A stretch of DNA of 64,000 nucleotides, taken from Candidatus Nomurabacteria bacterium. GTDB lineage: Bacteria > Patescibacteriota > Minisyncoccia > Phycocordibacterales > UBA918. The stretch covers positions 802,141 through 866,140 of the forward strand of contig JACKGF010000001.1 of assembly GCA_020632095.1 (NCBI GenBank). The letters are read 5' to 3'. A model generated the notes under the pieces. The model had not been told where the DNA came from and did no database searches. It was given only the letters and a program-made list of their open reading frames with translations. Shown piece after piece: positions 37,171 to 52,741 of the stretch. The first letter of the stretch is position 1. The number at the start of each line of letters is the position of its first letter. A program made the position numbers and the translations under genes.

Positions 37171-37320
37171 AGTTGCGCGGGTAGCGTATGGACCAAAGGC
37201 TCATACGCGGGGCTTCTTTAAGAAGAATGTTTCGGTTGTGAAGAACTTACTGCTGGGAACAATAGCGGTAATTCAAAATATAGTAAAACTGTTGACGATT
37301 TTCGACAACTAATCTAAAAT

Positions 37321-38079
37321 ATGATAATGAAAATGCTTGAAACTGCACTAGTTAATCTCGGTTTAATTCAGTCGGCGCGAACCGTCTACACCTCGCTTTT
37401 ACTAGAAGGTGATACCAGTGCCCGCCTACTGGCCAAGCGTACCGGTCTCACTCGACCATCAGTTTATGATCAATTAAAAGACTTGCGTAATCGAGGGTTG
37501 GTGGTTGAGCGTGATGTTGAAGGTAAGACATTATTTTCGGCTACGGAGGTGAGTCGGCTCGATGGTTTACTGCGTGACAAAATTGAATTACTAGAAGCCA
37601 GTCGAAATGCTCTCGAAGAAGATTTACCGGCTTTACTAGCGCAGGCTCAATCAGTCCAACCCAAGATTCAGTTTTTTGAAGGGACGGAAGGAGTGCAGCA
37701 ATTAATGAAAGACATGTTGTGGTTTGACGATATTATCGTGAAAGCTTTCTGGCCGTACCGTGAAATGGTTGAAATTCTCGGTGAAGATTTTTTAAGTTGG
37801 TTTAATGAAAGGCGGATTAAACGCCAGATTCACATTCATTCAATCTGGCCGCATGCCGATAAGAAGATTTCCAATATCTTTACCGGACAAGATGATTTTG
37901 TCACCAAGCGCTATGCGCTACCAACCCAAAAAACTAAAATGAGTTATTTAATCTACGGTGACAAAACCATATTCATCAGTTCCACCAATGAAGCCTTCGG
38001 CTTTTTAGTACAAAGCGCCGAGTACGCAAAGTTGATGGAAGTGCAGTTTGATTCGCTCTGGTCCACAGCAAAAAAATAG
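37321..38079 (+). CDS. TrmB-family transcriptional regulator (paralog 1)
   Basis: It has the N-terminal wHTH LAKRTGLTRPSVYDQLKDLRNRGLV and a TrmB-like C-terminal domain. Confidence 0.55.
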   Translation: MIMKMLETALVNLGLIQSARTVYTSLLLEGDTSARLLAKRTGLTRPSVYDQLKDLRNRGLVVERDVEGKTLFSATEVSRLDGLLRDKIELLEASRNALEEDLPALLAQAQSVQPKIQFFEGTEGVQQLMKDMLWFDDIIVKAFWPYREMVEILGEDFLSWFNERRIKRQIHIHSIWPHADKKISNIFTGQDDFVTKRYALPTQKTKMSYLIYGDKTIFISSTNEAFGFLVQSAEYAKLMEVQFDSLWSTAKK

Positions 38080-38147
38080 TAAGAGTTGTGGTTTAAGGTG
38101 TGAAAATATAACAATGTACCTTACATGCCACTTATTCAAGTTGAATG

Positions 38148-38342
38148 TTAAATTTTGAAGAGGCTTAAACCTTGCCTAATGTAGTTTTTTAAGAATAGAA
38201 AAGCGGGGAGGGTAGACTTGTCCCAGGAATCATTCCCAACCTCACCTTTTTCTGGTTTGAGTAATTTGGGTTCGTCAGACTCCCAATCGGCTGCCATGAT
38301 TGCAGTGATGTAATGTTTATTATCTTGTTGTAACAAAAACAC
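38148..38342 (-). pseudogene. NUDIX hydrolase C-terminal fragment (remnant paralog of 42863..43291)
   Basis: DNKHYITAIMAADWESDEPKLLKPEKGE..WDKSTLPAFLFLKNYIRQG matches EDKHYITMLVTADWSSVEPQLLEPEKCERWDWFSWDKLPSPLFLPMQNHIDQG. The NUDIX box is absent. Confidence 0.5.
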
Positions 38343-38461
38343 CTACCCCAACACTAGGAATGTCAGTAATTGGTGATTACAAAAAAAGTAAAAAGCTGAG
38401 CCTAAAAAGTATAGCTTTTTAGGTTAAAATAATTTATTAAATAAGTTATACTTAAAGTTAT

Positions 38462-39022
38462 ATGGAACCAGAAAAAATAAATTTTGAGCCAGAATTACAT
38501 TATAGTATAAATGAAGTAACCCCTTTATCAAAATACCTAGCTATGGTGTTGTTTGTTATCCTGCCTTTTCTCGGAGGGTGGATTGGTTATGTGTATGCTC
38601 CAGATAAGATTGTGGTGGAAGAGAAGGTTATTTATAAGGAGGTTAAAGAGATAGATCAGTCTCAAAATGCTCAGGAATTTGATAAGGTAGAAATATCAGA
38701 TAATGCAGATGTTCCGGCTACAGAAAAAGTTGAAGTAAAATCAGTACCAGGCGGTCCTTCAGTTGAAAATAAGAATGTTGTAGTCAGTCCAGAATCTAAG
38801 CCGCCATATTACATTGAAAGTGGAGAGGTAAAGGTTAATAAAAATAATAAAACATTTGAAGCAAAAGTTATGTTTGGTTTGGCAGATATAATTACAATTC
38901 AGGGTGTTTACTTGAGTGAGGCGAACCTCTTAGATGAGGTTCTTCAACAGATAGTTTCTAAGTCAGGACGGAATGCGAAATATGTTGATAAAAATAACAT
39001 AACTATTTCCTATGTTCAGTAG
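38462..39022 (+). CDS. hypothetical membrane-anchored protein
   Basis: It has an N-terminal TM helix (LAMVLFVILPFLGGWIGYVYA). Confidence 0.4.
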   Translation: MEPEKINFEPELHYSINEVTPLSKYLAMVLFVILPFLGGWIGYVYAPDKIVVEEKVIYKEVKEIDQSQNAQEFDKVEISDNADVPATEKVEVKSVPGGPSVENKNVVVSPESKPPYYIESGEVKVNKNNKTFEAKVMFGLADIITIQGVYLSEANLLDEVLQQIVSKSGRNAKYVDKNNITISYVQ

Positions 39023-39141
39023 TTAACTTGCTTGTATTGCTGCTTAAACCAAAACCCCGTAAGGGGTTTTGTTCTATGAGGTGAAAGGTATGAACTATTA
39101 AAAATAGAGGTTACTTTAAAATTCAAAAAATAAAACACTTT

Positions 39142-39471
39142 TTATTCCATCTCTAAGAGTTGAACAAAATCTATAGCTACTTCTTCATATGGGTGATGAA
39201 TTTTAACTATTTCTATGAGCTTTGGAATCTTGTTTTCTTCACAAATGAATTGAATAGCTACTTCGTCGACTTCTTCCAGCTGCCCGCTTTCACCAATGGT
39301 TGGGTTCGCTTGGCTGTTCGGTTTGAAATACCCTTTTCCTTTAGTGACAAAGGTGCAGTGAGAGTAATTGCCGATATTGCTAATATCGGCGTCCCCGATC
39401 TGCATTCTGAGATTTTCAGATTCTGGCTCCGGACAAGTTAGCCAAACCTTAATTCTTGAAGATTTTTTCAT
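39142..39471 (-). CDS. small hypothetical protein
   Basis: 109-aa ORF with a terminator-like hairpin downstream. Confidence 0.3.
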   Translation of the reverse strand: MKKSSRIKVWLTCPEPESENLRMQIGDADISNIGNYSHCTFVTKGKGYFKPNSQANPTIGESGQLEEVDEVAIQFICEENKIPKLIEIVKIHHPYEEVAIDFVQLLEME

Positions 39472-39551
39472 TTTTTGAGTATAACAGGGAGTTGGGCAGA
39501 GATAAAATACAATATTTAGCGAGTATGATATTTAATTATACTTTTAAATAA

Positions 39552-40523
39552 CTATTCTGTTTGTGTGATAAGTGTTCGCAATCTTGCGTTTACATCAAAC
39601 TTCTTTGAATTGTCTTGGATGAACTTGAACATAGACAGAATGAGTTTTTGCATTTCGGAGTTACGGATTTCAATTACGATTTCCTCGTTCACAGCTATCA
39701 GATATAAGGAGCTTTTAAAAATAAATATTTGACCGCCATGCTTGAAATAATCCTCATGGATTTCGTTTGATATGGCCATGCGTCCTTCGAAGTTTTTAGC
39801 CCATTCCGCGCCGTGTGATGGGTACATCCTTTCGAAAAGACCGACTGGAAATATCATTTCAGTAATTATCTTGTTGTCTTTGATTGAGAGATTCCATCGA
39901 TCAAAACTTTCGTTATCAAACATGTTTCTCCAGCCCTCCGCCGCACTGTCTCCTTGAAGTGCAAAAAGGCGTTCTTGCTTGTGCTCTTTGGTGAGGTTGC
40001 CTAAGAGCGTTTTAACAGCAATGTTGCCGCGATGAACAAGTACGGTCGAGTCTGATACGCCTTTAATTTCTTCAGTACCCTCTGGTATAGCTAAGAGCTC
40101 TGTCTTGGTTAAGTACAACTCCTGCTCAATATTTCTATCAGTGGTTTGTGTCCAATATTTTTTACCGCTTCGAATATAAGTGTTGATTAAGCCTCGTTTG
40201 TGTAATCTTTGTAGTGTTTCGTAGACTGTGGTGCGGGAAATCTTTGTGTGTCTGGTGATTAATAGGGGAGTATTGTATTTGTTGCGTAAGGAATCAAGCA
40301 CTTTGATTTCTGAACGCGATAAACCAAGTAGTTTGATATTAGTTTTGGACAGCTTCATCAGTGAATGGTAGCAATTGTAGTCAGTTCTGTCCAGAAAATC
40401 CGACATAATTAGTATCAATATAACCTTTAATAATATGTCCAGAAATGAGATAAGTAAATATAATGCAATAAATTTATACTTTAGTTCATATAGGAATAAG
40501 CTGTATACGGGTAAGTTAACCAA
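39552..40523 (-). CDS. TrmB-family transcriptional regulator (paralog 2)
   Basis: Its HTH is ITRHTKISRTTVYETLQRLHKRGLI. Its C-terminal domain is about 60% identical to 49303..50121. The N-terminal extension in the listed ORF may not be translated. Confidence 0.55.
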   Translation of the reverse strand: MVNLPVYSLFLYELKYKFIALYLLISFLDILLKVILILIMSDFLDRTDYNCYHSLMKLSKTNIKLLGLSRSEIKVLDSLRNKYNTPLLITRHTKISRTTVYETLQRLHKRGLINTYIRSGKKYWTQTTDRNIEQELYLTKTELLAIPEGTEEIKGVSDSTVLVHRGNIAVKTLLGNLTKEHKQERLFALQGDSAAEGWRNMFDNESFDRWNLSIKDNKIITEMIFPVGLFERMYPSHGAEWAKNFEGRMAISNEIHEDYFKHGGQIFIFKSSLYLIAVNEEIVIEIRNSEMQKLILSMFKFIQDNSKKFDVNARLRTLITQTE

Positions 40524-40543
40524 TCAATCTGAAGGAGAGTGAT

Positions 40544-41488
40544 ATGACGTACACGACAGACTTGTTGGAGAAGGGGTACTTTTCTGAGGTCAGCGATCCG
40601 GCGCTGGTAATAGTTTCTATAGAGAGTGCTTGTAACCTAGAATGCCTGCATTGCTACTGGGAACATGGATTAACTAAGTCTCCAGAGAGGGATTGGTCAA
40701 AACAATTGAATGCTATCGCGAGGTGGGGTTCCGACCTGCTGTTCGCAGGAAGAATTTTGTCTCCTCAAGGTGCAAAACTCATCCGAGACTTCTACAATCT
40801 CACTGGCAAAAAGATTGGGATAATTGACAATGGCTACACTATTCTTGATCCTAGATATCGTGATCTATTAGATATATATGATGAAGTTAATGTTTCCATT
40901 GATGGAGTTGCAGCCGACCATGACCGTCAGCGGGGGAAAGTCGGTTCCTCTCGCGACGCTTGGCGAGCAATTCATGTCTTGAAAGAGGCTGGACTGGACC
41001 CGATCGTCTCGAGTTGTGTCTCACCTATCAACATCGATCGGTGGAGTGAATTTGAGGCAGAGCTGTACCAATACGATGTACCATTGTCGTGCACTCCTGT
41101 CTTGGGGATTGGTGGAAATATCGGCAGGATGCCCGTGTTCTCGTCCAAGGAGTTGATTAAAGCTTTCGAGTTTCTTTTAGCTGGAGTTCCAAAGCTGATT
41201 AATCTGTTGGATCCGAAGCATATGCAAGTGCTCTTACCATTACTCAAGGAATTCGAGTGGCAGATTGAAGACGATGGTTATACAGCAGTTGTAAACAGTG
41301 TGCTTGTAAAATACAGGCCGTATAGTCTGTCAACAATAAGGGAATTGAATTTGCAATGGGATGGTGAATTTTATCCTTTCATGGATGTGTTGTCTGGTGG
41401 AAAACCAGTCACCAAAGATCGAGTGCTTGATACTGCGAATTCATTCGCGAGAATGGAGCACTCGTTGGTGAGGACGCTTTTTGAGTGA
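40544..41488 (+). CDS. radical SAM protein, function unknown (about 55% GC)
   Basis: It has the CxxxCxxC motif in SACNLECLHCYW. Confidence 0.65.
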   Translation: MTYTTDLLEKGYFSEVSDPALVIVSIESACNLECLHCYWEHGLTKSPERDWSKQLNAIARWGSDLLFAGRILSPQGAKLIRDFYNLTGKKIGIIDNGYTILDPRYRDLLDIYDEVNVSIDGVAADHDRQRGKVGSSRDAWRAIHVLKEAGLDPIVSSCVSPINIDRWSEFEAELYQYDVPLSCTPVLGIGGNIGRMPVFSSKELIKAFEFLLAGVPKLINLLDPKHMQVLLPLLKEFEWQIEDDGYTAVVNSVLVKYRPYSLSTIRELNLQWDGEFYPFMDVLSGGKPVTKDRVLDTANSFARMEHSLVRTLFE

Positions 41489-41579
41489 AGGGGTATAAGG
41501 CTAGTTTCACGCAAGCTTCTGGTCGAATAAAATTCAGTTTAAAATTTTATAAATTTTCAATTCAATAATAATTCTGAAT

Positions 41580-41851
41580 CAAGGGTAGATCGTTGCTGTA
41601 ACAACGTCTAATCTTGAAGGACGAAAGTTTCAAGACCCGTAGCCAGTCAAGGGCACACTGGCAGGAGAAGGGTCATGCTGACAGCGGCCATCGCGGGCTC
41701 CAAAAAAACCAAACCTCCGCGCCCGACCAGTTAGTTTAAGGTTAGCCTGAATCAGCTTCGGAGCCGGAAATCATGCACGGCTTGGCAACAGAAGTGTCTA
41801 GTAGTTAGACACACAGCATTAGCAGGGGTGAAACATATCCCTGCTTTTTTG
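41580..41851 (+). ncRNA. candidate structured leader/ncRNA ending in an intrinsic terminator
   Basis: It lies in a 410-nt intergenic region and has multiple hairpins: cgttg-ctgta-acaacg, gccagt..actggc nested in gaccc..gggtc, and gtgtcta-gtagt-tagacac. The terminator is agcaggggtgaaacatatccctgctttttt at 41821-41851. Confidence 0.25.
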
Positions 41852-41900
41852 TTTGGTAATAAATACTGTTATTGAATTGGAACAAGTTATAATAAATGAT

Positions 41901-42743
41901 ATGTATATTATTTTTGATATTGGCGGTACTAATACAAGGGTTGCGGCCGGTAAGGATTTAGAGACTTTCGGGGAACCGATTAAATTCAAGACCCCGCTGG
42001 GGTACAGTGATGGTATTCAGGCAATGCACGAAGCGATTAAAGAGTTATCCAAGGGAGAAGAAATCGAAGGTATCGCAGGCGGTATTAGAGGGCCACTTAA
42101 TCAAAACAAGACAGGGATTGTGAGTGAAGTCATACTGCATGATTGGGTTGATCACAACATCACGTCAGATATTGCTGCACCGTTCGGAACCTCTGCCTAT
42201 TTAGAAAATGACACTGCTATCGTTGGTCTGGGCGAAGTTCATTACGGAGGAGGCCGAGGATACCAAATTGTGGCGTATCATACTGTTAGTACAGGGGTAG
42301 GCGGAGCTAGATTCATTGATGGCAATCTTGATCTGGCTAGAGTTGGCTTTGAACCCGGACACCAAATTCTTGATTTTGACCGAAGTTTTCTAGAAACTAA
42401 TACATTACCTACTTTAGAAAATTTAGTGTCTGGTGCGGCTCTGGAGCGTATGAAAGGGGTAAAGCCTTATGAGGTTCCGCAAGATGATGTTGTGTGGGTG
42501 GAATTAGCTATGCGTCTGGCTGCAGGTTTACGAAATACAATTGTCTATTGGTCACCGGATGTAATTGTGCTCGGGGGATCAATGATAGTAGGTGATCCGC
42601 GTATCCGGCTAGAGGATATCCGTACTTATACAGAGGGTATCATGAAAGACTTCATGCCCTGCCCAAAAATTGTTGATGCAGAGCTCGGAGATGACGGAGG
42701 ATTGTATGGTGCTATGGCTATGTTGAAACAAAGAGAAGTGTAG
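41901..42743 (+). CDS. ROK-family sugar kinase / transcriptional-regulator-like protein
   Basis: MYIIFDIGGTNTRVA is the ROK ATP-binding start. The ATG at 41901 is preferred over the listed TTG at 41853, which sits inside the terminator T-tract. Confidence 0.65.
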   Translation: MYIIFDIGGTNTRVAAGKDLETFGEPIKFKTPLGYSDGIQAMHEAIKELSKGEEIEGIAGGIRGPLNQNKTGIVSEVILHDWVDHNITSDIAAPFGTSAYLENDTAIVGLGEVHYGGGRGYQIVAYHTVSTGVGGARFIDGNLDLARVGFEPGHQILDFDRSFLETNTLPTLENLVSGAALERMKGVKPYEVPQDDVVWVELAMRLAAGLRNTIVYWSPDVIVLGGSMIVGDPRIRLEDIRTYTEGIMKDFMPCPKIVDAELGDDGGLYGAMAMLKQREV

Positions 42744-42862
42744 GTTTTAGGTGGAACTGGAGGGTGTATGGTTTCTAGTTATTATTTTTTATCTCAATCA
42801 AAAGTAGTCCCATTGGGACAACTTTTCATGTTGGCTGTGCGGTGTATTCAACGACTTTAGAA

Positions 42863-43291
42863 TTATTTTTGAAAAGGGTTGTAGCCCTGATCAATATGAT
42901 TCTGCATAGGAAGAAACAGCGGAGAAGGTAATTTGTCCCAAGAAAACCAATCCCACCGCTCACATTTCTCAGGTTCAAGAAGCTGAGGTTCAACAGAGCT
43001 CCAGTCTGCAGTCACTAACATAGTTATGTAGTGCTTGTCTTCTTCTCTGAAGAAATCTTCTGTAAAAACTGGTGTTTGAATATTTTTAAGATTTACACCT
43101 ACCTCTTCTAGAGTTTCTCTAATCGCACAAGCTTCTATGGTCTCCATAAATTCTAAATGACCTCCTGGAGGAGACCAGCTTCCTGTTCCGTGGGCGTTTT
43201 TTCGTTTACCCAGTAAAACTTTCCCCTCTCGTTTAATGATAACTCCTACTCCAATCCTTGGTATTTTTCCCATATTTATTAATTTTAGCAA
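42863..43291 (-). CDS. NUDIX hydrolase
   Basis: The NUDIX box is GGHLEFMETIEACAIRETLEEVGV. Confidence 0.8.
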   Translation of the reverse strand: MLKLINMGKIPRIGVGVIIKREGKVLLGKRKNAHGTGSWSPPGGHLEFMETIEACAIRETLEEVGVNLKNIQTPVFTEDFFREEDKHYITMLVTADWSSVEPQLLEPEKCERWDWFSWDKLPSPLFLPMQNHIDQGYNPFQK

Positions 43292-43364
43292 AGTTATAGG
43301 ATGGTAACTACTTCAGTCAATCTGCCAACAATAAAACCCCCTAAATAGTGGTTCATTGTATCTG

Positions 43365-43435
43365 TGCGGGTGAGAGGAATCGAACCCCCGACTACTGCTT
43401 GGAAGGCAGTCGTTTTACCACTAAACTACACCCGC
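43365..43435 (-). tRNA. tRNA-Gly (anticodon TCC)
   Basis: Reverse-complement acceptor stem GCGGGTG/CACCCGC. The anticodon stem is ACTGC/GCAGT with loop CTTCCAA. The T-loop is TTCGATT. Confidence 0.8.
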
Positions 43436-43471
43436 GAAATGAGTACTTGGGGCGTTTGGGTGCGTAGCTTT

Positions 43472-43531
43472 CGAGAAGTAATTATTAATGAAACAGATGC
43501 TTGTATATGTTTCATTAATAATTACTTCTCG
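43472..43531. repeat. long perfect hairpin (24-bp arms, about 12-nt loop)
   Basis: cgagaagtaattattaatgaaaca ... tgtttcattaataattacttctcg. Confidence 0.6.
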
Positions 43532-43876
43532 ATACAGGCTTTGCCTGTATACCCAAACATTTCAGGCGAACGAGAGGGTGTATCCTTAGATACACCCGCG
43601 TGTGTCTGTATGCTCCACTCTGAACCAAGGGTTGGCTCAAAGTTAAACGATTCTAGCATATTAGGCTGATAATTCAATCTGTGGAGGAAAAACAAAAGTC
43701 TCCGGCTGAGGAGACTTTTGTTTTTTGTGATGGGAAATAGCGAACAACGCCCTTCTTTATCCACATAGCGTTACCTCCGCTACTTAAATATTATAGCACA
43801 CAGATTAGAGAAGGTGGTAGGTATAACAAATGCCGTGTGAGACTTTGGTCCCACACGGCATTTGTTTGAGAGTAAA

Positions 43877-44149
43877 TTACTTTACTGAATCCTTCAGGGC
43901 CTTCGCTGCTCGGAACTTTGGTACTCGCATAGCGGGTACTGATACAGTCTCACCAGTTCGTGGGTTTCGAGCTTCACGAGCTGCTCGCATCTTGGCTTCG
44001 AAAATACCAAATCCTGCAACTGATACTTGTGTGCCGTCCTTCATAGCTGCTTCGATGCTGTCAAATACAGCGTCAACTGCACGTTCTGCATCAGCCTTTG
44101 TTGTGTCGAGTACTTCGTGCACTTTGCTGATGATGTCTGCTTTATTCAT
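43877..44149 (-). CDS. hup: DNA-binding protein HU
   Basis: MNKADIISKV...GFGIFEAKMRAAREARNPRTGETVSVPAMRVPKFRAAKALK. Confidence 0.85.
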   Translation of the reverse strand: MNKADIISKVHEVLDTTKADAERAVDAVFDSIEAAMKDGTQVSVAGFGIFEAKMRAAREARNPRTGETVSVPAMRVPKFRAAKALKDSVK

Positions 44150-44334
44150 AGTTCAGAAATTATTTTCTAAGAGCGTTTAAATGTGGGCTGATAGTTATTT
44201 CAGCACCGTGCCTTTTTGGTGGCTTGAAAACATTATATATCAACGTATTTATGCTGCAACGACTACACAAGTCTTATTTGTGTTGTGTAATGTTTTTGAC
44301 CAAATTTTTTGTTAAACGATATAATTAAAAAATT

Positions 44335-44880
44335 ATGAAAATTGGAGTCATGGGAGCTAAAGGAAGTTTCTCGGAGCAAGCCGGCGAGACGTATTTGTCT
44401 AGCGGTGAAATTATTCCTTTGGTTAGCGCTGAGAACGTTTTAAGCGCTTTAAATAAGGGTGAAATTGACCGAGGAATTTTTCCAATTGAGAATAGCAATG
44501 GTGGAATTGTGCTTGAGGCGGTCTATGCGATGGCGAAATATACGTTCGAAATCGAACGTATGTTTGAGTTAGATATTCACCATATGTTGTTAGTGAAGCA
44601 TGGAGTAACTGCTTCCCGTATTCAATCGATATCCTCACATGACCAAGCTTTGAAGCAGTGTCGTATGTATTTGAAGCGAGTTTGGCCAGCAGCTGATATC
44701 AATCCTTATGCTGATACAGCTAAGGCGGCGGAAGATTTGGCGAGTGGAATTTTGCCGGAGACAACCGCAGTGATTGCACCAAGGCAATGTGCAGAGTTGT
44801 ATGGACTAGATATTTTGGATGAGTCGATTCAGGATTTGAAATTTAATTACACGACTTTTGTGGTGGCGGTGAAGGGGTAA
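44335..44880 (+). CDS. prephenate dehydratase catalytic (PDT) domain protein, no ACT domain
   Basis: MKIGVMGAKGSFSEQA...IFPIENS is the PDT domain. The protein is only 181 aa. Confidence 0.6.
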   Translation: MKIGVMGAKGSFSEQAGETYLSSGEIIPLVSAENVLSALNKGEIDRGIFPIENSNGGIVLEAVYAMAKYTFEIERMFELDIHHMLLVKHGVTASRIQSISSHDQALKQCRMYLKRVWPAADINPYADTAKAAEDLASGILPETTAVIAPRQCAELYGLDILDESIQDLKFNYTTFVVAVKG

Positions 44881-44932
44881 GTGGAAATTAAAAAAGGTCG
44901 GCCCTACAGGGCCGACCTTTTTTAATTTCCAC
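44881..44932. terminator. extended bidirectional terminator hairpin
   Basis: gtggaaattaaaaaaggtcggccc-tac-agggccgaccttttttaatttccac. It has the same build as 58448-58502. Confidence 0.65.
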
Positions 44933-46462
44933 TTACCGAGCGTAACTAATCACTCTAGTTTCACGAATAACATGAACTTTAATTTCTCCGGGGTAACGCA
45001 ACTGGGCTTCGATAGTGGTAGCTATCGTGCGGGCTAGGGCGTTGGTTTCAAAATCATTGAGAGTGGTTGGGTTTACCAGTACTCTGATTTCTCGACCGGC
45101 TGCAATCGCAAAGGCTTTGTCTACTCCAGCTAGGTTTGTGGCAATATTTTCTAGGTCAGACAATCTTTTGACATAGTTCTCTAGGGAATCACGTCTAGCG
45201 CCTGGTCGTCCGCCTGAGATTGAGTCGGCTACTTGGACGATGATTGATTCAGGTGTCTCGTACGGATATTCCTCGTGGTGAGCGCGCATGGCCAGGATGA
45301 CTTTCTGGTCGACACCATATTTCTCCAGAATCCGGATACCGATTTCAACGTGGGTACCGGCTACCTCATGACTGACCGTCTTTCCGATATCGTGGAGCAA
45401 AGCTCCAGCGCGGGCAATACCGACATCAGCCCCCACTTCTTCTGCGATTACTCCAGCGATATGTGCCATTTCCACTGAGTGCCAGAGAACGTTTTGGCCA
45501 TAGCTAGTCCGGAAATGAAGACGGCCAAGGATGGTAAGTAGGTCAGGGTGAAGATTTGGCACATTGGCTTCGTAAGCCGCCTTTTCGCCCATGGCTCGCA
45601 CTGTTTTGGCTACTTCAGAGCGAGCCTTCTCTACTTCCTCCTCAATCTTGGCTGGTTGAATTCGCCCGTCCTTAAGAAGAGTTTCGAGAGCTACGCGAGC
45701 AATCTCGCGGCGGATTGGGTCAAACGAAGACAAGACAATGTAGCCGGGTGATTCATCGATTAGGACATCGACCCCAGTGGCTCGCTCGAAGGCGCGCACG
45801 TTTCTACCTTCTTTTCCAATCACCTTACCCTTTAGGTCATCACTTGGAATTTCTACATGAGCTGTCATCAGGTTGGGTGACACTGTGTTACCAGCGCGAT
45901 GAATAGCTGCCATTAAGATATTTTGAGCTTTTTGCTCGTACTGTTCTTCACCCAAGCGGTCTAGTTTTTCCAAACGAGCGCGCAGGTCGCCCTCTCGTTC
46001 TATTTCAACTACTTTCATCAGCTTTTCAACCGCTTCGTCCTTGGTTAATCCCGCTACAGCCTCCAGCTTTTTGTCGGCTTCATCAACTCGGGTATCGAGT
46101 TGAGCTTTGATAGATTTAATCTGTTCAACTTTGTCTTGCAATGATTCTTTTTGGGAATCAATGTCGATTTGTCGGTCGTCTAGAATTTCCTCTCTTTTTG
46201 ATAGTCGGGTTTCCTTTTGTTCCAGTTTTTCCTCCAAGTGCTTTCGTTCGGCTTTTGCTTCGGCCTCGATACGTTCGGCTTTGTTTTCAGCTTCCTCAAT
46301 GATAGCTAACGCCTTTTTCTCGGCGTCAATTTCTTTCTCTTTCAGGTCTAATTCAATCGAGTTTTTCTTTGAGTGAGCGTGCAGGTAGCGCACATAATAA
46401 CCAGCTCCAATACCGAGAAATAAAGCAACTGCCAGAGCGACCATAAATGTTTGTGGTGGCAT
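44933..46462 (-). CDS. rny: ribonuclease Y
   Basis: It has an N-terminal TM helix, a coiled coil, a KH domain and an HD domain (LLHDIGK). Confidence 0.85.
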   Translation of the reverse strand: MPPQTFMVALAVALFLGIGAGYYVRYLHAHSKKNSIELDLKEKEIDAEKKALAIIEEAENKAERIEAEAKAERKHLEEKLEQKETRLSKREEILDDRQIDIDSQKESLQDKVEQIKSIKAQLDTRVDEADKKLEAVAGLTKDEAVEKLMKVVEIEREGDLRARLEKLDRLGEEQYEQKAQNILMAAIHRAGNTVSPNLMTAHVEIPSDDLKGKVIGKEGRNVRAFERATGVDVLIDESPGYIVLSSFDPIRREIARVALETLLKDGRIQPAKIEEEVEKARSEVAKTVRAMGEKAAYEANVPNLHPDLLTILGRLHFRTSYGQNVLWHSVEMAHIAGVIAEEVGADVGIARAGALLHDIGKTVSHEVAGTHVEIGIRILEKYGVDQKVILAMRAHHEEYPYETPESIIVQVADSISGGRPGARRDSLENYVKRLSDLENIATNLAGVDKAFAIAAGREIRVLVNPTTLNDFETNALARTIATTIEAQLRYPGEIKVHVIRETRVISYAR

Positions 46463-46585
46463 ATTGTGTATTTCTTAAATAATATTCGTAACAGTACAAA
46501 ATCAACTGTACTAGACAATGAGGGATTTGTAAAACTGGTCGGTGATACGAGAATCACCGACCAGCTGTTCTGGTTCAGACTACTG

Positions 46586-47137
46586 TTACTGCAAGCCGAG
46601 AAAGGCTTTTATCATTTCTTTTGTGATCTTACCCTTGCTTTTTCTTATGAGAACAATCAGTTCGGCCAGATTGTCTGTCGGTAGCGGGTTTCTGCTTGTT
46701 TGGTAACATTCGGCAATTACCTCGACCAAAGGAAGAAAAGCTAGAGAAACCAATTCTTTACACGTGACACCAGGCTCGTCGGTTATGGAGTCCACAAAGA
46801 AATAGTTCTTAAGATTTATCACGTTACCCTTCGTTGGTAGCGTGTAGGCTCCTAGCCACCGGTCAATTGTCGCGATTGAAATTGACGTTTGGTGAGCAAA
46901 ATCCTGCTTGTTGCCGAAGGTTGCAAAGAGGTTCGATAAGGCTGTGGCAACAGGTTTGTTATTTGTGAGACCAGCTCTAGCTTCTGTAACCGCATGTTCG
47001 AACACTCCCCAAAGTTCTGAGACCGATTGAGTATTTGTCATTGTTTCACTCCTGTTTGTTGAATGCGGATTGATTGAAGAACTCCCAGATACACTGAGTA
47101 TGTTTAATAATATGTAGCAAATGGATGGAAATGGCAA
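46586..47137 (-). CDS. hypothetical protein
   Basis: ORF. The likely start is MTNTQSVSELW at about 47042. Confidence 0.4.
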   Translation of the reverse strand: MPFPSICYILLNILSVSGSSSINPHSTNRSETMTNTQSVSELWGVFEHAVTEARAGLTNNKPVATALSNLFATFGNKQDFAHQTSISIATIDRWLGAYTLPTKGNVINLKNYFFVDSITDEPGVTCKELVSLAFLPLVEVIAECYQTSRNPLPTDNLAELIVLIRKSKGKITKEMIKAFLGLQ

Positions 47138-47356
47138 GTGATATGAAAACCAAGTAGAAAAAATTGTGAGGGGACTGAAAGACTATATAAAAGCCCTAGC
47201 TGCCGAAATTGGCTACTTAGGACTTATCGTAGCAAATTAAATTGCTATCTTATTATTCTGTTTTTTGTGATACTTTTTCTATTTCTTACAAGTTTTTGAT
47301 ATAAAACATTTATAACATTACTTCAGAAACAAACTCTGACACTCACTTGCTAGACG

Positions 47357-47722
47357 TTAGCAATCAAAAATAAGTGTCATCACTTCTTCACGGTTGGTAG
47401 CTGTAAATTTATTACCAGGCCAAGAATGAATGCTTTTGCGTTCGAAAACAACATTGGTCGGCTCAACTACTCGTTCGAAGTTGTCAAATTTTAATTCAGG
47501 GTACCACTCCTCCTCATCATATTCACGTTGTACGTATGATAGGAGTTGAGTGAATCTCCACCAAACACCGAGGACACAAATAAACCAAGTTTCTTGTTCC
47601 TCAAAAGAATAGGATAACTCACTACCTCTTTCCGTGTAGAAAAGTACATCGATGTCAATCTCTTCTCCAAGTATTGCTTGTGAATCAACAACATGAATGT
47701 CTATTTCGGTAACATGAGACAT
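47357..47722 (-). CDS. hypothetical protein
   Basis: 121-aa ORF followed by a terminator at about 47829-47875. Confidence 0.4.
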   Translation of the reverse strand: MSHVTEIDIHVVDSQAILGEEIDIDVLFYTERGSELSYSFEEQETWFICVLGVWWRFTQLLSYVQREYDEEEWYPELKFDNFERVVEPTNVVFERKSIHSWPGNKFTATNREEVMTLIFDC

Positions 47723-47893
47723 GAAGAACTCCTTTTCGGTTTTGAGCCCGAGAATTCGGAACTCGTCTTCAATAATAGCATGAAATCATGAAAAGTCAAG
47801 CGTGGAGCGTGGATTTTGGGGTGAGTTTAGTAAAACAGGGTGGGATTTTCTTAAGAAAATCCCACCCTGTTTTTGATCTCGGTTGCTTCGATT

Positions 47894-48502
47894 CTATTTA
47901 TAAATCGCGTCAACAATTCCGTAGGCTTTAGCTTCATCGGCATCCATGAAGAGGTCGCGGTCGACATCTTGCTCAACTTTGGCTAGCTTTTGCCCAGTAG
48001 CCTTGGCGAGCATTTTGTTGAGTCGTTCTCGGGTCTTTATGATGTGCTTAGCGGTGATATCAATATCAGAAGCTTGGCCGTAGGCGCCACCACTGGGTTG
48101 GTGAATCATTACCTCGGCGTTGGGTAGAATAAAACGCTTACCTTTCTCTCCTTGCGATAGAATCAAAGAACCCATTGAAGCAGCCATCCCAACACACACC
48201 GTCGCCACGTGAGGCTTGATGTGGTGCATGGTGTCAATAATCGACAAGCCAGCGGTCACACTACCGCCCGGTGAATTAATGTATAAGAAAATATCCTTCT
48301 TGGGATCGTCAGATTCTAGGAAGAGTAATTGCGCCACAATCAGGTTGGACATATGGTCTTCAATCTGTCCAGTAATAAAAATTATCCGTTCTTTTAACAG
48401 GCGGGAAAAGATATCGAAAGCGCGTTCGCCACCCGCGGTTTTTTCAATCACCATTGGGACTAGGTTAGCACTTGGTAGTTCTGTTTGTTTTTCAGTTTGC
48501 AT
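47894..48502 (-). CDS. clpP: ATP-dependent Clp protease proteolytic subunit
   Basis: [11 protein letters not shown] and MIHQPSGG give the catalytic Ser and His. Confidence 0.9.
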
Positions 48503-48670
48503 AAGTTTTCAAAATTAATGATTCTGCGACAATAAGCTCGGTGCAGACTCTAATCGTACTCAATTATCTCTATAAAAGCAAAATATATAATTCGAGGTAT
48601 TAGAGATTATGTTTTTTTGTCAGGATAAACAAAGTCATCCAACAAGGTCGAATGACTTTGTTGGATGGGG

Positions 48671-49084
48671 CTAAATCTTTAGGTGCATTTTTACCTCTTG
48701 TAGTGCAAGCCGATGAAATCCAAGCTGGATTTGATTCAGCGCATCTTCAATACTATGGAGTTCTACAAAAGGGTGTAGTTTTTTGTCGTCATCAAACATG
48801 CTGAAATTATTGACAAGCCAAATGGTGTACACATCGACAGCTTTCCTCGATGAATAGAGAATGCGGTCTTCGATGAGGAGAAAGCGATAAAGCTTTAATG
48901 TCTGGCCAGTTTCTTTATGCATCATGCGTCGTACAGCTCTCCTTCGGGTTTCTCCAAAACGACATGAGCAGATAGGAAGTCCAAGAAGTACCCTTTTGAG
49001 AGCCTTACCTTCATATCGCCTCAGAGTAACAACTTGATTGTCTGGTGTAAGGGCAACGACAATATTGAAATATCTGCTGGTCAC
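48671..49084 (-). CDS. hypothetical protein (possible degenerate NUDIX fold)
   Basis: GLPICSCRFGETRRRAVRRMMHKETG weakly resembles a NUDIX box. Confidence 0.3.
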   Translation of the reverse strand: MTSRYFNIVVALTPDNQVVTLRRYEGKALKRVLLGLPICSCRFGETRRRAVRRMMHKETGQTLKLYRFLLIEDRILYSSRKAVDVYTIWLVNNFSMFDDDKKLHPFVELHSIEDALNQIQLGFHRLALQEVKMHLKI

Positions 49085-49149
49085 GTGCTTCTCCTCGTTG
49101 ATTGAACTGGTGATAATGTACTTTGGTAGGGGATATTAGTCAAATATTT

Positions 49150-49301
49150 AAAACCGGTGCGAGACATTGTCTCGTACCGGTTTAACAATTCACTCTTTAG
49201 TTTACTTCTACTTCGATTCCAGCATCTTCAGCACTTCTTCATTCAGTAAGACTGATGCGACATACAGGCGGACGCGGTGTTCGTCGGCGTCTTTGAGGTG
49301 T
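49150..49301 (-). pseudogene. diverged duplicate of the tig 3' end plus its terminator (matches 53276..53437 at about 90%)
   Basis: aaaaccggtgcgagacattgtctcgtaccggtttaacaattcactctttagtttacttctacttcg... aligns with the region around the tig stop codon. Confidence 0.6.
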
Positions 49302-49302
49302 G

Positions 49303-50121
49303 TTAGGAGTTATACGTTTTAGCTAGTAGTTCTCGCAATCTAGCGTTCACGTCAAATTTTCTTGAGTTGTCTTTGATGAATTCAAACATCGATTTTATCA
49401 ATTTCTGGATTTCTGAATGGCGGATTTCAATAATGATTTCCTCGTTCATCGCGATTAAATAAACTGAGTTCTTAAACATCCAAATCTGCCCAGCGTGTTG
49501 AAAGTAGTCACCTGCAATTTCATGCGAAATAGCCGACCGACCTTCAAATTCTTCCGCCCACTTTTTACCCAGCAATTCAGTCTGCCTCTCAAACCAGCCA
49601 AAGGGCATAATGGTCTCCACAATAATCGCGTTCTTTTTGATGAATCTATTAATTTCATTCGTTTGCTCGGTACCAAAAACTTTTTCCCAACCAATCACGA
49701 CCACGTCTCCCTGAATCGCCAGTAACCGTTGTTCCTTATGGTCTTTGATGATTCCGTAAAGAAGCTGGCGGATGGCCTCACCACCGCGGTGAATCATAAC
49801 GGTTGAATCAGATAGTCCGTGCACCTCCTCAACTCTTTCATCTATATTGAATAGTTGTTTCTTCGTATTGTATAGATTTTGTTCAATATCTTTTTCCTTA
49901 GCCTGCGACCAATATTTTTTACCATTAACAATATTGGTTTTTACCAACCCTCTTTTGTGCAGCTTAACCAGAATCTCATAAATAGCGGGGCGGGATACTT
50001 TAATAGCCTTGTTAATCAACAGTGGGGTATTGTTTCCAGCCCGCAAAGCATCCAACACCTTAATCTCTTTGGTGGATAATCCCAGTAATTTTATCTGTTC
50101 AGCGTCTAATTTCATACCCAC
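49303..50121 (-). CDS. TrmB-family transcriptional regulator (paralog 3)
   Basis: Its HTH is INKAIKVSRPAIYEILVKLHKRGLV. Its C-terminal domain is closely similar to 39552..40523. Confidence 0.55.
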   Translation of the reverse strand: MGMKLDAEQIKLLGLSTKEIKVLDALRAGNNTPLLINKAIKVSRPAIYEILVKLHKRGLVKTNIVNGKKYWSQAKEKDIEQNLYNTKKQLFNIDERVEEVHGLSDSTVMIHRGGEAIRQLLYGIIKDHKEQRLLAIQGDVVVIGWEKVFGTEQTNEINRFIKKNAIIVETIMPFGWFERQTELLGKKWAEEFEGRSAISHEIAGDYFQHAGQIWMFKNSVYLIAMNEEIIIEIRHSEIQKLIKSMFEFIKDNSRKFDVNARLRELLAKTYNS

Positions 50122-50196
50122 ATAGTACCAATATTTGCATTATTGTAAAGTTTTACCTACATAGTTACAGATAAATCCACGGCTTAAAACATATTT

Positions 50197-51204
50197 TTCC
50201 CCCAGACACCTTTGAAGTAGGACAGCTATAAAGTAAATTAGCTGTCTATGAAAACATACAGACACATACAATTTGAGGAGCGTTTCGTAATTGAAAAGTT
50301 ATTGAACGCAGGGAGTTTGATCAGAGAAATAGCCATCTTCCTCAAACGTAGTCCCAACACCATCAGTCAGGAACTAAAGAAGAATAGGGTTAATGGAGTC
50401 TATGACGCCAAGCAAGCCCAACTAAAAGTGAACCAGCGTCGTTGGCGCGCTAAACGTCAGTGTCTCAAGGTGGCAATGGATAGTTTCCTAGTAAGCTTCG
50501 TAGAAGACAAACTAGAGCAGAAGTGGACCCCTAAACAAATCAGTGGACATCTCAAACGAGAGCTCGGTGTTACCTGTTCCGCCAAAGCTATATACAAGTT
50601 CATAGAAAGTCGTGGTCTGGAATATCGACTATTCTGGCGTTGGAACAAAAAGAAAAGTGGTCCGAAACGGACCACACATAAACCAGCTGATGATGGCCGT
50701 AAATATATAGATATTCGTCCTCTTGGTAGCCATGAGCTAGGTCACTATGAACTAGACTTCATTGTCTCTAAGTACAGTCCATACGTACTTCTAGTGGCTA
50801 CTGACCGTTTAACTAAATACAGCTTGGTACGTCAGTTACCCAATAGAAAACGCCACACAATCAGTGCAGCGTTCTCTAAAATGTTTAGCAATATTATAGT
50901 CAAGAGTATCACCACCGACAACGACATTGCATTCCGTCACTGGACGGAACTAGAACAAATCATACAGGCTCCAATCTATTTCTGCCACCCTTATCATTCT
51001 TGGGAGAAGGGACTGGTAGAGAATACTAATCGTTGGATTAGATGCTTTGTTCCAAAGCGGAGAGACATTGCGTCTGTTACTCAAGAAGAATTGAATGAGA
51101 TTCATACCTTCTTGAATGACCGACCGAAAGAGTGTATTGATTTTAGGATTTCGAGTGAGTATTATTATGAGCAATCTGTCCTACTTGAGGGGTAGCTGGA
51201 GGTT
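50197..51204 (+). mobile_element. IS30-family insertion sequence, copy 1 (about 1.0 kb)
   Basis: It is identical to 60664..61671 apart from 2-3 substitutions. It has imperfect terminal inverted repeats (..aagtaggacag..) and encodes a DDE transposase. Confidence 0.8.
50248..51195 (+). CDS. IS30-family DDE transposase
   Basis: 315 aa with an N-terminal HTH and a C-terminal integrase-core region (HPYHSWEKGLVEN). Confidence 0.85.
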   Translation: MKTYRHIQFEERFVIEKLLNAGSLIREIAIFLKRSPNTISQELKKNRVNGVYDAKQAQLKVNQRRWRAKRQCLKVAMDSFLVSFVEDKLEQKWTPKQISGHLKRELGVTCSAKAIYKFIESRGLEYRLFWRWNKKKSGPKRTTHKPADDGRKYIDIRPLGSHELGHYELDFIVSKYSPYVLLVATDRLTKYSLVRQLPNRKRHTISAAFSKMFSNIIVKSITTDNDIAFRHWTELEQIIQAPIYFCHPYHSWEKGLVENTNRWIRCFVPKRRDIASVTQEELNEIHTFLNDRPKECIDFRISSEYYYEQSVLLEG

Positions 51205-51282
51205 TTTCACACACTGAGCCTAAAACCACAGATAAATTGTACTGTCAACTAATTTTACCCTATACTATTCGCAGTTAGTTCT

Positions 51283-51720
51283 TTGACACGCGGAATAATT
51301 CCGCACCCGCGCCTCGGGGTACTGGGGTTGGAGACAAGCATGAGCAAGTACGAAAATGTCGAAAGCTTCAGCATTGAGGTTGATGGATTTGCGGGAGAGG
51401 TCAAAATGACCTATGTCCCAAACAGAATCGACTCCGACGGCTCCGCCTTCGGGCGCCACCTGAAGAGCTGTGAGGTCAGTCTCACCGACCCGAGCGGTCA
51501 GGTGTGGTGCGCGGAGTTGGGAGCGTCCGGAGGTGGCGGCGGATCCTGGAGCGCGGCGTCAACCGAATTCTTCTGGAAGACGGTTGAGCGAGTTGGTGGC
51601 ACCCTGGTACTGGGCGGAGATGAAGTGACCATCTTCGAGACATATAACGCTCGAAATGCGTTTTCTGGTGGGTGGTCAACCTCCCGCCGTGTAAAACACA
51701 TCGAGGTCGTTTTGGAGTAG
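51283..51720 (+). CDS. hypothetical protein in very high-GC DNA (about 65-70% GC); likely start at about 51340
   Basis: ORF with GC-rich codons and a Gly run (GASGGGGGSW). Confidence 0.3.
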   Translation: MTRGIIPHPRLGVLGLETSMSKYENVESFSIEVDGFAGEVKMTYVPNRIDSDGSAFGRHLKSCEVSLTDPSGQVWCAELGASGGGGGSWSAASTEFFWKTVERVGGTLVLGGDEVTIFETYNARNAFSGGWSTSRRVKHIEVVLE

Positions 51721-51895
51721 TCGGTCGCCGCGCTGAGCCCAGTCTGACAGCGCGCTAAAAATAAATGGGTGCTCGAGAGCGGGCAGATGGAGGGATAACA
51801 GACTAAATCCCCATCAAGAGCTTCTGGTAGATTAGCTTAGACTACCCGTTTGACCTTACGTGAAAGTGTCTTGGCGAGTTGAATGTTCACACCTC

Positions 51896-51944
51896 CTCGC
51901 CATCTTTATCAAGTTCATCAGTTAATGGTGAATTTGTAGAGATG
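51896..51944 (+). repeat. 49-bp direct repeat copy 1
   Basis: ctcgccatctttatcaagttcatcagttaatggtgaatttgtagagatg. It is repeated exactly at 52674..52722. Confidence 0.7.
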
Positions 51945-52472: not shown

Positions 52473-52646
52473 ATGGAAAAGATGCACATTGAAGTAGCTG
52501 GGGGCACGGTCATTCATTTGCCAGTTGCCGAGCTTCCTGCCGGAGCTCCTAGCGAGGAGTATCTCGCGCGACGGAAAGCAGCCGGGGCTAAGCTCCCGAT
52601 TCTTAATGTTCCATTACCAATTGAGGAGGGTCATGAGGATACATGA
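52473..52646 (+). CDS. small ORF (57 aa) with a strong RBS
   Basis: aaggagaaacaaATG gives MEKMHIEVAGGTVIHLPVAELPAGAPSEEYLARRKAAGAKLPILNVPLPIEEGHEDT. Confidence 0.3.
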   Translation: MEKMHIEVAGGTVIHLPVAELPAGAPSEEYLARRKAAGAKLPILNVPLPIEEGHEDT

Positions 52647-52722: not shown

Positions 52723-52741
52723 AATCTAAATGAAAGCTATT

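Follow-up and report, generated by a model that had tools for sequence, protein, structure and literature searches.

How three genes for TrmB-like regulators came to share one 13-kb stretch of a Candidatus Nomurabacteria genome (Parcubacteria, CPR), and which genes they might control, is the question raised by this locus. CPR genomes encode few regulators, and we know of almost none that have been studied; a search of a paper library found none that brings up TrmB in connection with the candidate phyla radiation or Patescibacteria. An earlier note had read the cluster as a local expansion of one regulator family, in which each copy is paired with distinct and partly foreign neighbours. We analyzed 64 kb of the genome (the window) together with related loci from other genomes. 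The reading that we consider probable is that the three genes encode TrmB-like proteins predicted to be autoregulated, two of them (P1 and P2) being old residents of a syntenic neighbourhood and the third (P3) having arrived by insertion.

The three ORFs are present at 37321-38079 (P1), 39552-40523 (P2) and 49303-50121 (P3). Because of the conserved promoter/operator geometry and the N-termini of orthologs, we place the likely true starts at 37327, 40358 and 50115, respectively. P1 (37327-38079, plus strand) would begin at M3 of an ORF that opens at 37321 and comprise 250 aa, P2 (39552-40358, minus strand), with its ATG at 40358, would comprise 268 aa, and P3 (49303-50115, minus strand) 270 aa. 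The first 55 aa of the P2 ORF, an N-terminal extension, probably remain untranslated. Searches of the 64-kb window with tblastn and with family HMMs in six frames found no further members of either regulator family beyond P1, P2 and P3.

The description of all three ORFs as a TrmB-type winged HTH joined to a related C-terminal domain holds. Rather than falling into different HTH families, they all match the Pfam TrmB HTH profile PF01978 above its gathering cut-off of 25.6 bits (P1 36.8, P2 30.7 and P3 33.1 bits). The domain order is the same in each: a TrmB-type winged HTH, a putative coiled-coil dimerization helix (long in P1) and a single non-catalytic PLD-like domain, which corresponds to the first effector subdomain of TrmB, a beta-sheet flanked by helices. 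In AF2 models (pLDDT 85 and 91), the helix directly follows the wing (residues 78-110 of P1 and 74-88 of P3). P2 and P3 are indeed related, but their similarity is not confined to the last ~100 residues as had been thought: they are 57% identical over 267 aa, their full length. P1 is a member of family B, a distant sister family to family A (P2 and P3), and the two family profiles align at 98.7% probability. Family A is assigned to the TrmB family because of its Pfam match and fold; against the PDB, its profile gave no significant sequence match to TrmB, and the best match was ZitR (E 0.002). In the TrmB family, the recognition helix carries a Tyr with an Asp or Glu as the next residue, as in TrmB (Y50/D51) and TrmBL3 (Y50/E51) (PMC4158304). 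P1 RPSVYD aligns with TrmB NRVYD and TrmBL2 PRTYD, its VYD matching Y50-D51 of TrmB, and the aligned residues are RTTVYE in P2 and RPAIYE in P3. The Tyr is invariant across both family alignments. Together, these features suggest that P1, P2 and P3 are short-form DNA-binding proteins of one TrmB superfamily with a shared C-terminal domain.

Comparison with archaeal relatives indicates what the proteins lack. P1-P3 resemble TrmB and TrmBL1 (Tgr) of Thermococcales (PDB 3qph and 2f5t; 338-341 aa) in PF01978, the Tyr-Asp/Glu pair, the PLD-like first subdomain and, as predicted, a coiled-coil dimer, but at 250-270 aa the CPR proteins stop after this first effector subdomain. The second effector subdomain of TrmB/TrmBL1 is a beta-barrel with sugar-binding residues G320 and E326 (PMC4158304); P1-P3 have no equivalents of these residues and gave no PF11495 match even at E values up to 1, and therefore sugar sensing is not expected. 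A sugar-sensing TrmB identity was thus rejected for P1-P3, and the regulators' neighbours, in contrast to those of TrmB/TrmBL1, are not sugar transporters. Without the C-terminal sugar-binding barrel, the proteins have the architecture of TrmBL2 (TK0471) of Thermococcales (PDB 5bpd; 264 aa), which is equally short. In archaea, TrmBL2 is an abundant chromatin protein that also acts as a global repressor, and it binds coding as well as intergenic DNA (PMC4158304). P1-P3, in contrast, are bacterial, their sequence similarity to TrmBL2 is limited to the DNA-binding domain, and one conserved palindrome marks each of their own promoters, a layout that points to site-specific autoregulation.

The common operator that the earlier note had suggested looking for was recovered as a shared geometry, an 18-bp palindrome over each regulator's own -35 box. 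The P1 operator candidate, TGTTGACGATTTTCGACA (37290-37307), lies over the P1 -35 box and over the back-to-back -35 box of a divergent gene for a 385-aa protein. A promoter scan placed the P1 promoter, TTGACG-17-TAAAAT, at 37292-37320; the divergent promoter, TTGTCG-17-TACTAT on the minus strand, was read from the sequence. With a PWM from other genomes, this palindrome gave the highest score in the window (27.5). Among 56 family-B loci, about 50 have the palindrome TGTCGACGAATTTCGACA once each, upstream of the regulator gene, and it was found nowhere else in 393 kb. For P2, the candidate TGTCGGATTTTCTGGACA (minus strand, 40388-40405) covers the -35 box TGGACA, which the promoter scan joins over 17 nt to a TACCAT ending 6 nt before the ATG, and it aligns with orthologous operators. 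The P3 candidate, TGTAGGTAAAACTTTACA (minus strand, 50144-50161), covers TTTACA, which lies 16 nt from TACTAT in the same scan. A family-A PWM trained on other genomes only, with the window sequences left out, scored the P3 site best in the 64 kb (19.5; 50141-50163), followed by the P2 site (15.6; 40385-40407), and the next best site reached 9.7. TGTC-N10-GACA is found 40-50 nt upstream of the start in 16/20 family-A upstream regions (L004-L022); it is farther away in L005 and L008, has N9 spacing in L007b and precedes the preceding ORF in L006. The 338 kb of family-A loci contain this motif almost exclusively before the regulator gene itself.

Across both families, the 18-bp palindromes on the regulators' own -35 boxes are conserved in about 70 loci and occur almost nowhere else; for P1, P2 and P3, this pattern points to autorepression through the palindromes at their own promoters. 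Part of the palindrome conservation could reflect promoter conservation, because the palindromes overlap -35 boxes. In L036 and L038, however, the family-B palindrome has left the -35 box and sits downstream of the -10 box, which makes its conservation independent of the promoter boxes. No second target site for the regulators was found in the window or the compared loci. The candidate layout is similar to that of TrmB/TrmBL1, which are autoregulated and have palindromic operators (TACT-N3-AGTA; TATCAC-N5-GTGATA) over core promoter elements (PMC4158304). The candidate equivalents in the CPR families differ in sequence, with TGTC-N10-GACA in family A and TGTCGA-N6-TCGACA in family B.

We propose that each regulator, as a dimer, would bind its one palindrome over its own -35 box and repress itself, and that the regulator transcripts are probably leaderless. 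P1 would also co-repress the divergent 385-aa gene, because the palindrome carries the -35 box of that promoter as well. Co-regulation of a divergent radical-SAM gene by P2 is possible, because the P2 operator candidate lies in the 185-nt region that the two genes share. The well-conserved PLD-like domain probably forms a second dimer interface and may bind a ligand; variants of 435-463 aa have two tandem C-domains, which we count in favour of a dimerizing C-domain.

The surroundings of P1 and P2 follow a gene order that is common across Parcubacteria: tig, clpP, RNase Y, radical SAM, regulator, HU and trypsin-like protease. The HU gene (43877-44149, minus strand; Bac_DNA_binding E 6.8e-31) lies within the conserved RNase Y - regulator - HU order. 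Of the genes that the earlier note had placed opposite P1, the one for the 385-aa protein (35980-37137, minus strand; ATG at 37137 after an AGGAGG ribosome-binding site) is a conserved partner, whereas the S1 protease is not. A P1 ortholog with a divergent, adjoining homolog of the 385-aa protein (29-60% identity) is present at 19 other loci; the protein has no match in Pfam, NCBIfam, PADLOC, PHROGs or PDB. The radical-SAM gene (40544-41488, plus strand) encodes a protein with a PF04055 match of 30.7 bits and a CxxxCxxC motif at residues 30-37, and its further matches are weak and of the SPASM or viperin type. Its divergent pairing with the regulator recurs in eight other loci (L007, L011, L012, L014, L015, L017, L093 and L094), including L093 with a 62% identical homolog and an identical 185-nt gap to the regulator. 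In several genomes the two genes are separated by a small ORF or by over 500 nt, and we regard P2 and the radical-SAM gene as apparently linked only by adjacency. The elevated GC content ascribed to this gene, by contrast, did not stand up: at 45.3% it is close to tig (45.8%), clpP (46.1%) and RNase Y (47.8%), in a window of 42.4% GC. One strain variant (L031) has an integrative element at the tRNA-Gly gene, 3 kb from P2.

P3 lies elsewhere, in a unit of ~4 kb (4.1 kb) inserted between tig and clpP (47894-48502, minus strand; Pfam). The clpP gene is normally found directly downstream of tig, and the two are adjacent in relatives L013, L025 and L030; here they are parted by the P3-bearing insert. 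Direct repeats of 171 nt, 91% identical, bracket the insert. Copy A (49141-49311, minus strand) is an orphan tig 3' end (the last 33 codons and a terminator hairpin) that follows the P3 stop codon without a gap. Copy B (53267-53437, minus strand) belongs to the intact tig gene (53334-54467; tig Pfam domains) and forms its 3' end together with the terminator. A comparison with L025 favoured neither tig copy as the resident one. Seven of the ten codon changes between the copies are synonymous, and therefore both 3' ends diverged while coding; the copies appear to be allelic-type versions of the tig 3' end. As had been noted, P3 overlaps this tig repeat (copy A) by 9 nt (49303-49311) and abuts an IS30-family element (50196-51204, plus strand), which is 80 nt from the P3 start and 34 nt from the P3 operator candidate. 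The element has 27-nt inverted repeats (50199-50225 and 51176-51202; 78% complementarity) and a transposase gene (50248-51195) with HTH_38 (E 9.9e-12) and rve (24.7 bits, below the cut-off of 32.6) matches. A further copy lies at 60663-61671 (99.2% identity, 1009 bp). The remaining ~2 kb (51205-53266) is degenerate sequence of 47% GC with internal 39-49-nt repeats and stops in all six frames; it contains no convincing gene, its longest ORFs have no Pfam, PADLOC or PHROGs match, and no match to phage or plasmid DNA was found.

The P3 unit resembles integrative elements that supply a replacement gene 3' end (attL/attR) in being flanked by direct repeats of the tig 3' end and terminator. It differs from such elements in that its repeat copies are long and match at only 91%, degenerate sequence makes up half of the insert, IS30 is present, and no integrase or recombinase domain apart from the IS30 transposase was found in the ORFs of 49312-53266. 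An integrase once present could have decayed. The neighbours of P3 in this genome are IS30, the degenerate sequence and a strain-specific ORF. P3 orthologs elsewhere have neighbours that are unrelated among loci, with no conserved cargo. Genes of the P3 clade adjoin toxin-antitoxin, ParA-like and type IV secretion genes in other genomes.

The sequence comparisons do not support a local expansion through duplication. Other Parcubacteria have proteins that match P3 at up to 74% identity, whereas P2 matches it at 57%. The best foreign match of P2 is P0068 (64% identity), its sister at 99% bootstrap in a tree in which P3 is poorly placed, and therefore P2 and P3 are not sisters. On these alignments and this tree, P2 and P3 did not arise by recent copying at this locus. 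The family-B gene P1 and the family-A gene P2 would be vertically inherited residents of a conserved Parcubacterial neighbourhood, and P3 a second, anciently diverged family-A copy brought on the ~4 kb inserted at the tig 3' end. This could have occurred through an element integrating with its own tig 3' end or through recombination with related-lineage DNA, and IS30 would have landed beside P3 later.

Modular units of regulator plus cargo that arose by local duplication or by joint acquisition with partly foreign neighbours are an unlikely explanation of the cluster as a whole. The conserved pairs of P1 and P2 (P3 has none), the inserted DNA and IS30 beside P3, the L031 element near P2, and the mobile-type neighbours of P3-clade genes would all fit this explanation. 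However, P1, P2 and their partners belong to the Parcubacteria-wide order, which largely refutes it for these two genes; the radical-SAM GC equals that of housekeeping genes; and P2 and P3 are each nearer to foreign proteins than to one another. Acquisition survives for P3 alone, as a gene in inserted DNA, and even P3 lacks conserved cargo, with no family-A members found in viral contigs.

It is quite improbable that the regulators are nucleoid proteins that coat DNA with little specificity, their palindromes being mere promoter elements (-35 boxes and A-tracts). The small number of regulators in CPR genomes would favour such a role, as would the overlap of the palindromes with -35 hexamers and the position of the family-A/B gene slot next to HU in many genomes. 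The architecture of TrmBL2, in which the sugar-binding subdomain is missing (PMC4158304), points the same way. Against this, each family has its own motif, which is essentially restricted to the gene of the regulator itself and absent from other promoters, and a single such site per locus argues against non-specific coating. Moreover, the upstream half-site TGTC falls outside the -35 box, and the L036/L038 palindrome has kept its sequence downstream of the -10 box. That the PLD-like domain is an active nuclease or phosphodiesterase, making these HTH-targeted enzymes such as defence or toxin proteins, is extremely improbable. In contrast to single-domain PLD-superfamily proteins (Nuc, NucT, Zucchini and FAM83 DUF1669), P1-P3 have no HKD and carry the domain fused to a DNA-binding domain. 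A regex search found no HxK(x)4D motif in P1, P2 or P3, and the sole HxK/HxR triplets of P2 and P3 fall inside the HTH. PADLOC matches do not extend beyond the N-terminal winged HTH (residues 2-101 in proteins of 252-270 aa), as with Csa3/CasR, and TrmB itself has the same inactive fold.

TrmB-like regulators predicted to be autoregulated, with P1 and P2 in old synteny and P3 probably inserted, are an ordinary, newly described regulator set, and no new kind of system is revealed. What is new is two CPR-wide TrmB-like families, each with a defined candidate operator and promoter layout, and a conserved candidate target gene for one of them. The candidate operators offer a cheap, directly testable entry to transcriptional control in uncultured CPR bacteria. 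The locus also illustrates how old synteny together with a single insertion can produce a paralog cluster that resembles local expansion. A more ambitious joint reading, which we consider doubtful, would make families A and B core Parcubacteria transcription factors, self-repressing, leaderless and TrmBL2-shaped, with an 18-bp operator and a PLD-like domain that senses a metabolite. Family B would control the 385-aa protein, found only beside family B; free-standing C-terminal mini-proteins of 73-91 aa and tandem-C-domain fusions would modulate the regulators by mixed dimerization; and P3 would mark a new class of small integrative elements targeting the tig 3' end in CPR. The two family-A genes of this genome differ in one further respect: P2 sits in the syntenic slot, yet its sequence is the more divergent, and P3 is canonical for family A in sequence and non-canonical in location.

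The three ORFs that an earlier note had described as TrmB-type regulators are all present. Each scores above the gathering threshold of PF01978 (TrmB winged-HTH), and six-frame searches with tblastn and family HMMs found no other such gene in the 64-kb window. P2 (39552-40358, minus strand; H6784_04105) and P3 (49303-50115, minus strand; H6784_04165), whose locus tags come from exact-match database entries, share 57% identity over 267 residues, the full length, and represent family A. Of 1.84 billion cluster representatives, this family accounts for 75 at E ≤ 1e-30 and 398 at E ≤ 1e-10, and all of its named matches are from Parcubacteria or Patescibacteria. P1 (37327-38079, plus strand) represents family B and is only 22% identical to P3. 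It is tied to P2 and P3 by the alignment of the two family profiles (98.7% probability, E = 2e-16), by the match of the P1-family HMM to P3 residues 16-260 (E = 1.6e-14), and by AlphaFold models of P1 and P3 (pLDDT 91 and 85, respectively), which retrieve identical fold matches.

In these models, a winged HTH is predicted to lead through a helix (residues 74-88 in P3, 78-110 in P1) into a single alpha/beta domain. P1, P2 and P3 all lack HxK(x)4D, the catalytic motif of PLD enzymes. TrmB and TrmBL2 are the top PDB sequence matches of the P1-family profile, and the invariant Y49-D50 of P1 aligns to TrmB Y50-D51, a DNA-contacting pair (PMC4158304); P2 and P3 have Tyr-Glu at this position. None of the three proteins matches PF11495, and all end after the first effector subdomain. 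Therefore, they have the architecture of TrmBL2 and TrmBL3, which are 264 aa long (PMC4158304), and differ from the sugar-sensing TrmB in having no second effector subdomain. Within the TrmB family, P1-P3 are short-form members from bacteria, with membership, fold and a dead PLD site established in silico. Our literature search turned up no paper that connects TrmB to CPR or Patescibacteria.

Some family-A variants of 435-463 aa (P0002-P0004, P0141) carry a second PLD-like C-domain behind the first, and residues 293-457 of P0002 are 63% identical to residues 103-266 of P3. These variants fit a C-domain that usually associates with a second copy of itself, as happens in single-domain PLD proteins, and the tandem would be the covalent counterpart of the presumed C-domain dimer. 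There are also free-standing genes of 73-91 aa that cover nothing but the final third of the C-terminal domain of family A (L003 7098-7319 and L025 8031-8264, in two comparison loci; proteins P0243, P0245 and P0248), one of them directly downstream of a full-length regulator. Since such genes turn up in several lineages, they may encode genuine mini-proteins rather than fragments, possibly acting as dimerisation modulators.

Family-A genes are preceded by ATGTCnnAAAAACTTGACAGA, which lies 40-50 nt before the start in 16 of the 20 upstream regions examined (L004-L022). This TGTC-N10-GACA palindrome provides the -35 box with its right arm and is followed by an (extended) -10 box that ends 6-7 nt before the ATG. 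When a family-A PWM trained solely on other genomes was run on the window, it returned exactly two strong sites, at the promoters of P2 (40385-40407, score 15.6) and P3 (50141-50163, score 19.5). The next-best match scored 9.7, shuffled sequences gave 0-3 matches at a score of at least 8, and no additional operator stood above chance. Over the 338 kb of family-A loci, occurrences of the motif are almost confined to the region in front of the regulator itself. The family-B motif, TGTCGACGAATTTCGACA, is present in about 50 of 56 loci, each time as a single copy immediately upstream of the regulator, with no occurrence elsewhere in 393 kb; upstream of P1 it takes the form TGTTGACGATTTTCGACA (37290-37307, family-B PWM score 27.5). 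The second-best family-B match (3595-3612) falls within the PNPase gene and was taken as chance, not as a regulon site. A degenerate TGTM-N10-KACA pattern was not enriched (4 matches versus 3.5 expected). The two motifs have a common 18-bp frame, TGTC...GACA, as expected from homologous recognition helices. The common operator that the earlier note had suggested looking for is borne out as a common geometry: in silico, both families carry conserved, family-specific TGTC...GACA palindromes at their own promoters.

The short distance between -10 box and ATG indicates that the regulator transcripts are probably leaderless. The same geometry of promoter and operator makes 37327 (P1), 40358 (P2) and 50115 (P3) the likely starts, and makes a 55-codon N-terminal extension of P2, and the 284-aa database call for it, unlikely. 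Where a family-B gene has a divergent partner, its palindrome accommodates two -35 boxes back to back: TTGACG serves the regulator, and TTGTCG-17-TACTAT the divergent gene. One bound dimer could therefore shut both promoters.

The comparison of gene neighbourhoods drew on species-representative genomes for family A (27 loci), on metagenomes for family B (54 loci), and on targeted contigs. In many Parcubacteria the order tig, clpP, RNase Y, opposite-strand radical-SAM gene, regulator, HU, MgsA/RarA and trypsin-like protease recurs, and P2 occupies the syntenic regulator position. A family-B gene often lies a few kb from the family-A gene (L008, L009, L015, L019, L020, L021, L023), and in L049, L055, L067, L070, L074 and L076 it is the family-B gene that holds the slot between RNase Y and HU. 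The HU gene of the window, a conserved neighbour of the regulator slot, is at 43877-44149 on the minus strand (Bac_DNA_binding, E = 6.8e-31); a 116-aa plus-strand ORF at 43830-44180 is spurious. Rfam reports tRNAs and no other RNA family in the region. Three kb from P2, the 3' end of tRNA-Gly-TCC (43363/43364) marks the point at which a contig from another sample (L031; ENA ERZ27248697) diverges after 100% identity to 50337-43363. Beyond it, L031 6976-9444 encodes a large serine recombinase and a Rep-like gene, and constitutes a strain-level integrative element at tRNA-Gly.

The partner genes of P1 and P2 recur with their regulators. A radical-SAM gene is the divergent partner of family-A genes in L007, L011, L012, L014, L015, L017, L093 and L094, and in L093, which carries the closest relative of P2, it is 62% identical to the gene of the window (40544-41488, plus strand) and separated from the regulator by an identical 185-nt gap. 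Conservation within this intergenic region is confined to the operator and promoter beside the regulator. The earlier note had described the radical-SAM gene as having elevated GC, but a foreign origin on this ground was rejected: its GC content is 45.3%, similar to that of tig, clpP and RNase Y, and it does not look foreign. The protein could not be assigned to a specific family, giving just weak generic SPASM-type or viperin-type matches far under the cut-offs. For P1, the conserved divergent partner is not the protease named previously, but the 385-aa gene at 35980-37137 (minus strand), homologs of which (29-60% identity) lie divergently beside a P1 ortholog in 19 loci. Its product had no match in a PDB sequence search, and the neighbours at 35980-37137, 35114-35710, 38462-39022, 39142-39471 and 48671-49084 had none in Pfam, NCBIfam, PADLOC or PHROGs. 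The minus-strand 5' UTR of the 385-aa gene contains a GC-rich hairpin, GCGTATG-N11-CATACGC (37184-37208), in an AT-rich leader between the divergent promoter and an AGGAGG ribosome-binding site; orthologous leaders are likewise long (100-390 nt). Thus, the proposed pairing of regulators with neighbours holds for P1 and P2, but the neighbours of P3 orthologs are unrelated and variable, and include toxin-antitoxin, ParA-like and type IV secretion genes. Partner genes, synteny and the allelic repeats around P3 described below are likewise established in silico.

In the relatives L013, L025 and L030, clpP directly follows tig, whereas in the window an insert separates the two. Read on the minus strand, the intervening segment comprises, in turn, a degenerate stretch of about 2 kb (47% GC, stops in all frames), a 1009-bp IS30 element (50196-51204), P3, whose promoter and operator are undisturbed at 34 nt from the IS end, an orphan tig end (49141-49311) made up of the last 33 codons and terminator hairpin, and a strain-specific ORF of 137 aa. 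Identity between the orphan and the real tig end (53267-53437) is 91%, and 7 of the 10 differing codons are synonymous (P ~0.01 by our own binomial estimate, with about 28% of random changes synonymous). Both ends therefore diverged within working tig genes and are two alleles. One of them appears to have arrived with foreign DNA from a related lineage; an integrative element that brought its own replacement 3' end, or recombination, could account for this. Comparison with the relative CP060229.1 does not tell which copy is native. No integrase remains among the insert ORFs. A phage or plasmid origin was rejected, given that the insert DNA matched nothing in phage and plasmid collections and no family-A relatives were found in viral contigs. 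The degenerate segment harbors an exact 49-nt repeat (51896-51944 and 52674-52722) and a 90%-identical 39-nt repeat (52253-52291 and 52657-52695). A second IS30 copy (60663-61671, 99.2% identity) lies in direct orientation 10.5 kb away, and the pair brackets core genes including tig and a formylglutamate amidohydrolase-like gene. Two such similar copies around core genes suggest that the element is probably active.

Local expansion of one regulator family, as the earlier note had it, does not agree with the descent of these genes. P3 is 60-74% identical to many proteins of other genomes, above its identity to P2, and a neighbour-joining tree joins P2 to its closest foreign match, P0068 (64% identity), with 99% bootstrap. 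This means that P2 and P3 are not sisters, and a recent tandem or local duplication was rejected on these identities and the tree. Their split would be older than this lineage, or one copy was imported. A Parcubacterial genome (L007; CAZTTV010000003.1) also has two family-A copies, at 7953-8819 and 10338-11156, 1.5 kb apart, one divergent from a radical-SAM gene and the other beside clpP-tig; a periplasmic-binding-protein gene comes after each. In a separate tree the two copies are sisters, which suggests an independent duplication that resembles the window in layout.

We propose that a dimer of each regulator would bind its palindrome and repress its own gene, and that the PLD-like domain would sense a ligand. 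P1 would also co-repress the 385-aa gene, and P2 might control the radical-SAM gene. Cross-talk between P2 and P3 is possible; their sites share a frame and differ in their arms (TGTC/GACA versus TGTA/TACA). This predicted operator-over-promoter logic resembles that of TrmB/TrmBL1 (PMC4158304). That the palindromes are merely promoter elements is improbable: in L036 and L038, which lack the 385-aa partner gene, the family-B palindrome lies downstream of a TATAAT box, which argues that it is conserved as the site itself and not merely as a -35 element. An active nuclease is also improbable given the missing HxK(x)4D motif, and we assign a low probability to a non-specific chromatin role like that of TrmBL2, which P1-P3 resemble in shape (PMC4158304). 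The earlier model of regulator and cargo acquired together as modules is also unlikely. Acquisition is supported for P3 alone, but P3 has no recognisable cargo; the underlying observation was correct and its interpretation partly wrong. The finding is useful mainly in that it provides testable candidate operators for regulators from a group that has hardly been studied.

Elsewhere in the window, GC content reaches 50-55%, compared with 42% on average for the whole window, at 19001-21000, just downstream of tRNA-Arg (18916-18989), where Rfam reported no family. A 79-nt unit is repeated 121 nt apart at 16854-16932 and 16975-17053 with 91% identity. In both copies a small hairpin (GGCCTGAAAGGCC) occurs together with an ATG and the ribosome-binding site AAAGGAG. 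The unit looks like the start of a gene that was duplicated, or like part of a short family of tandem genes.
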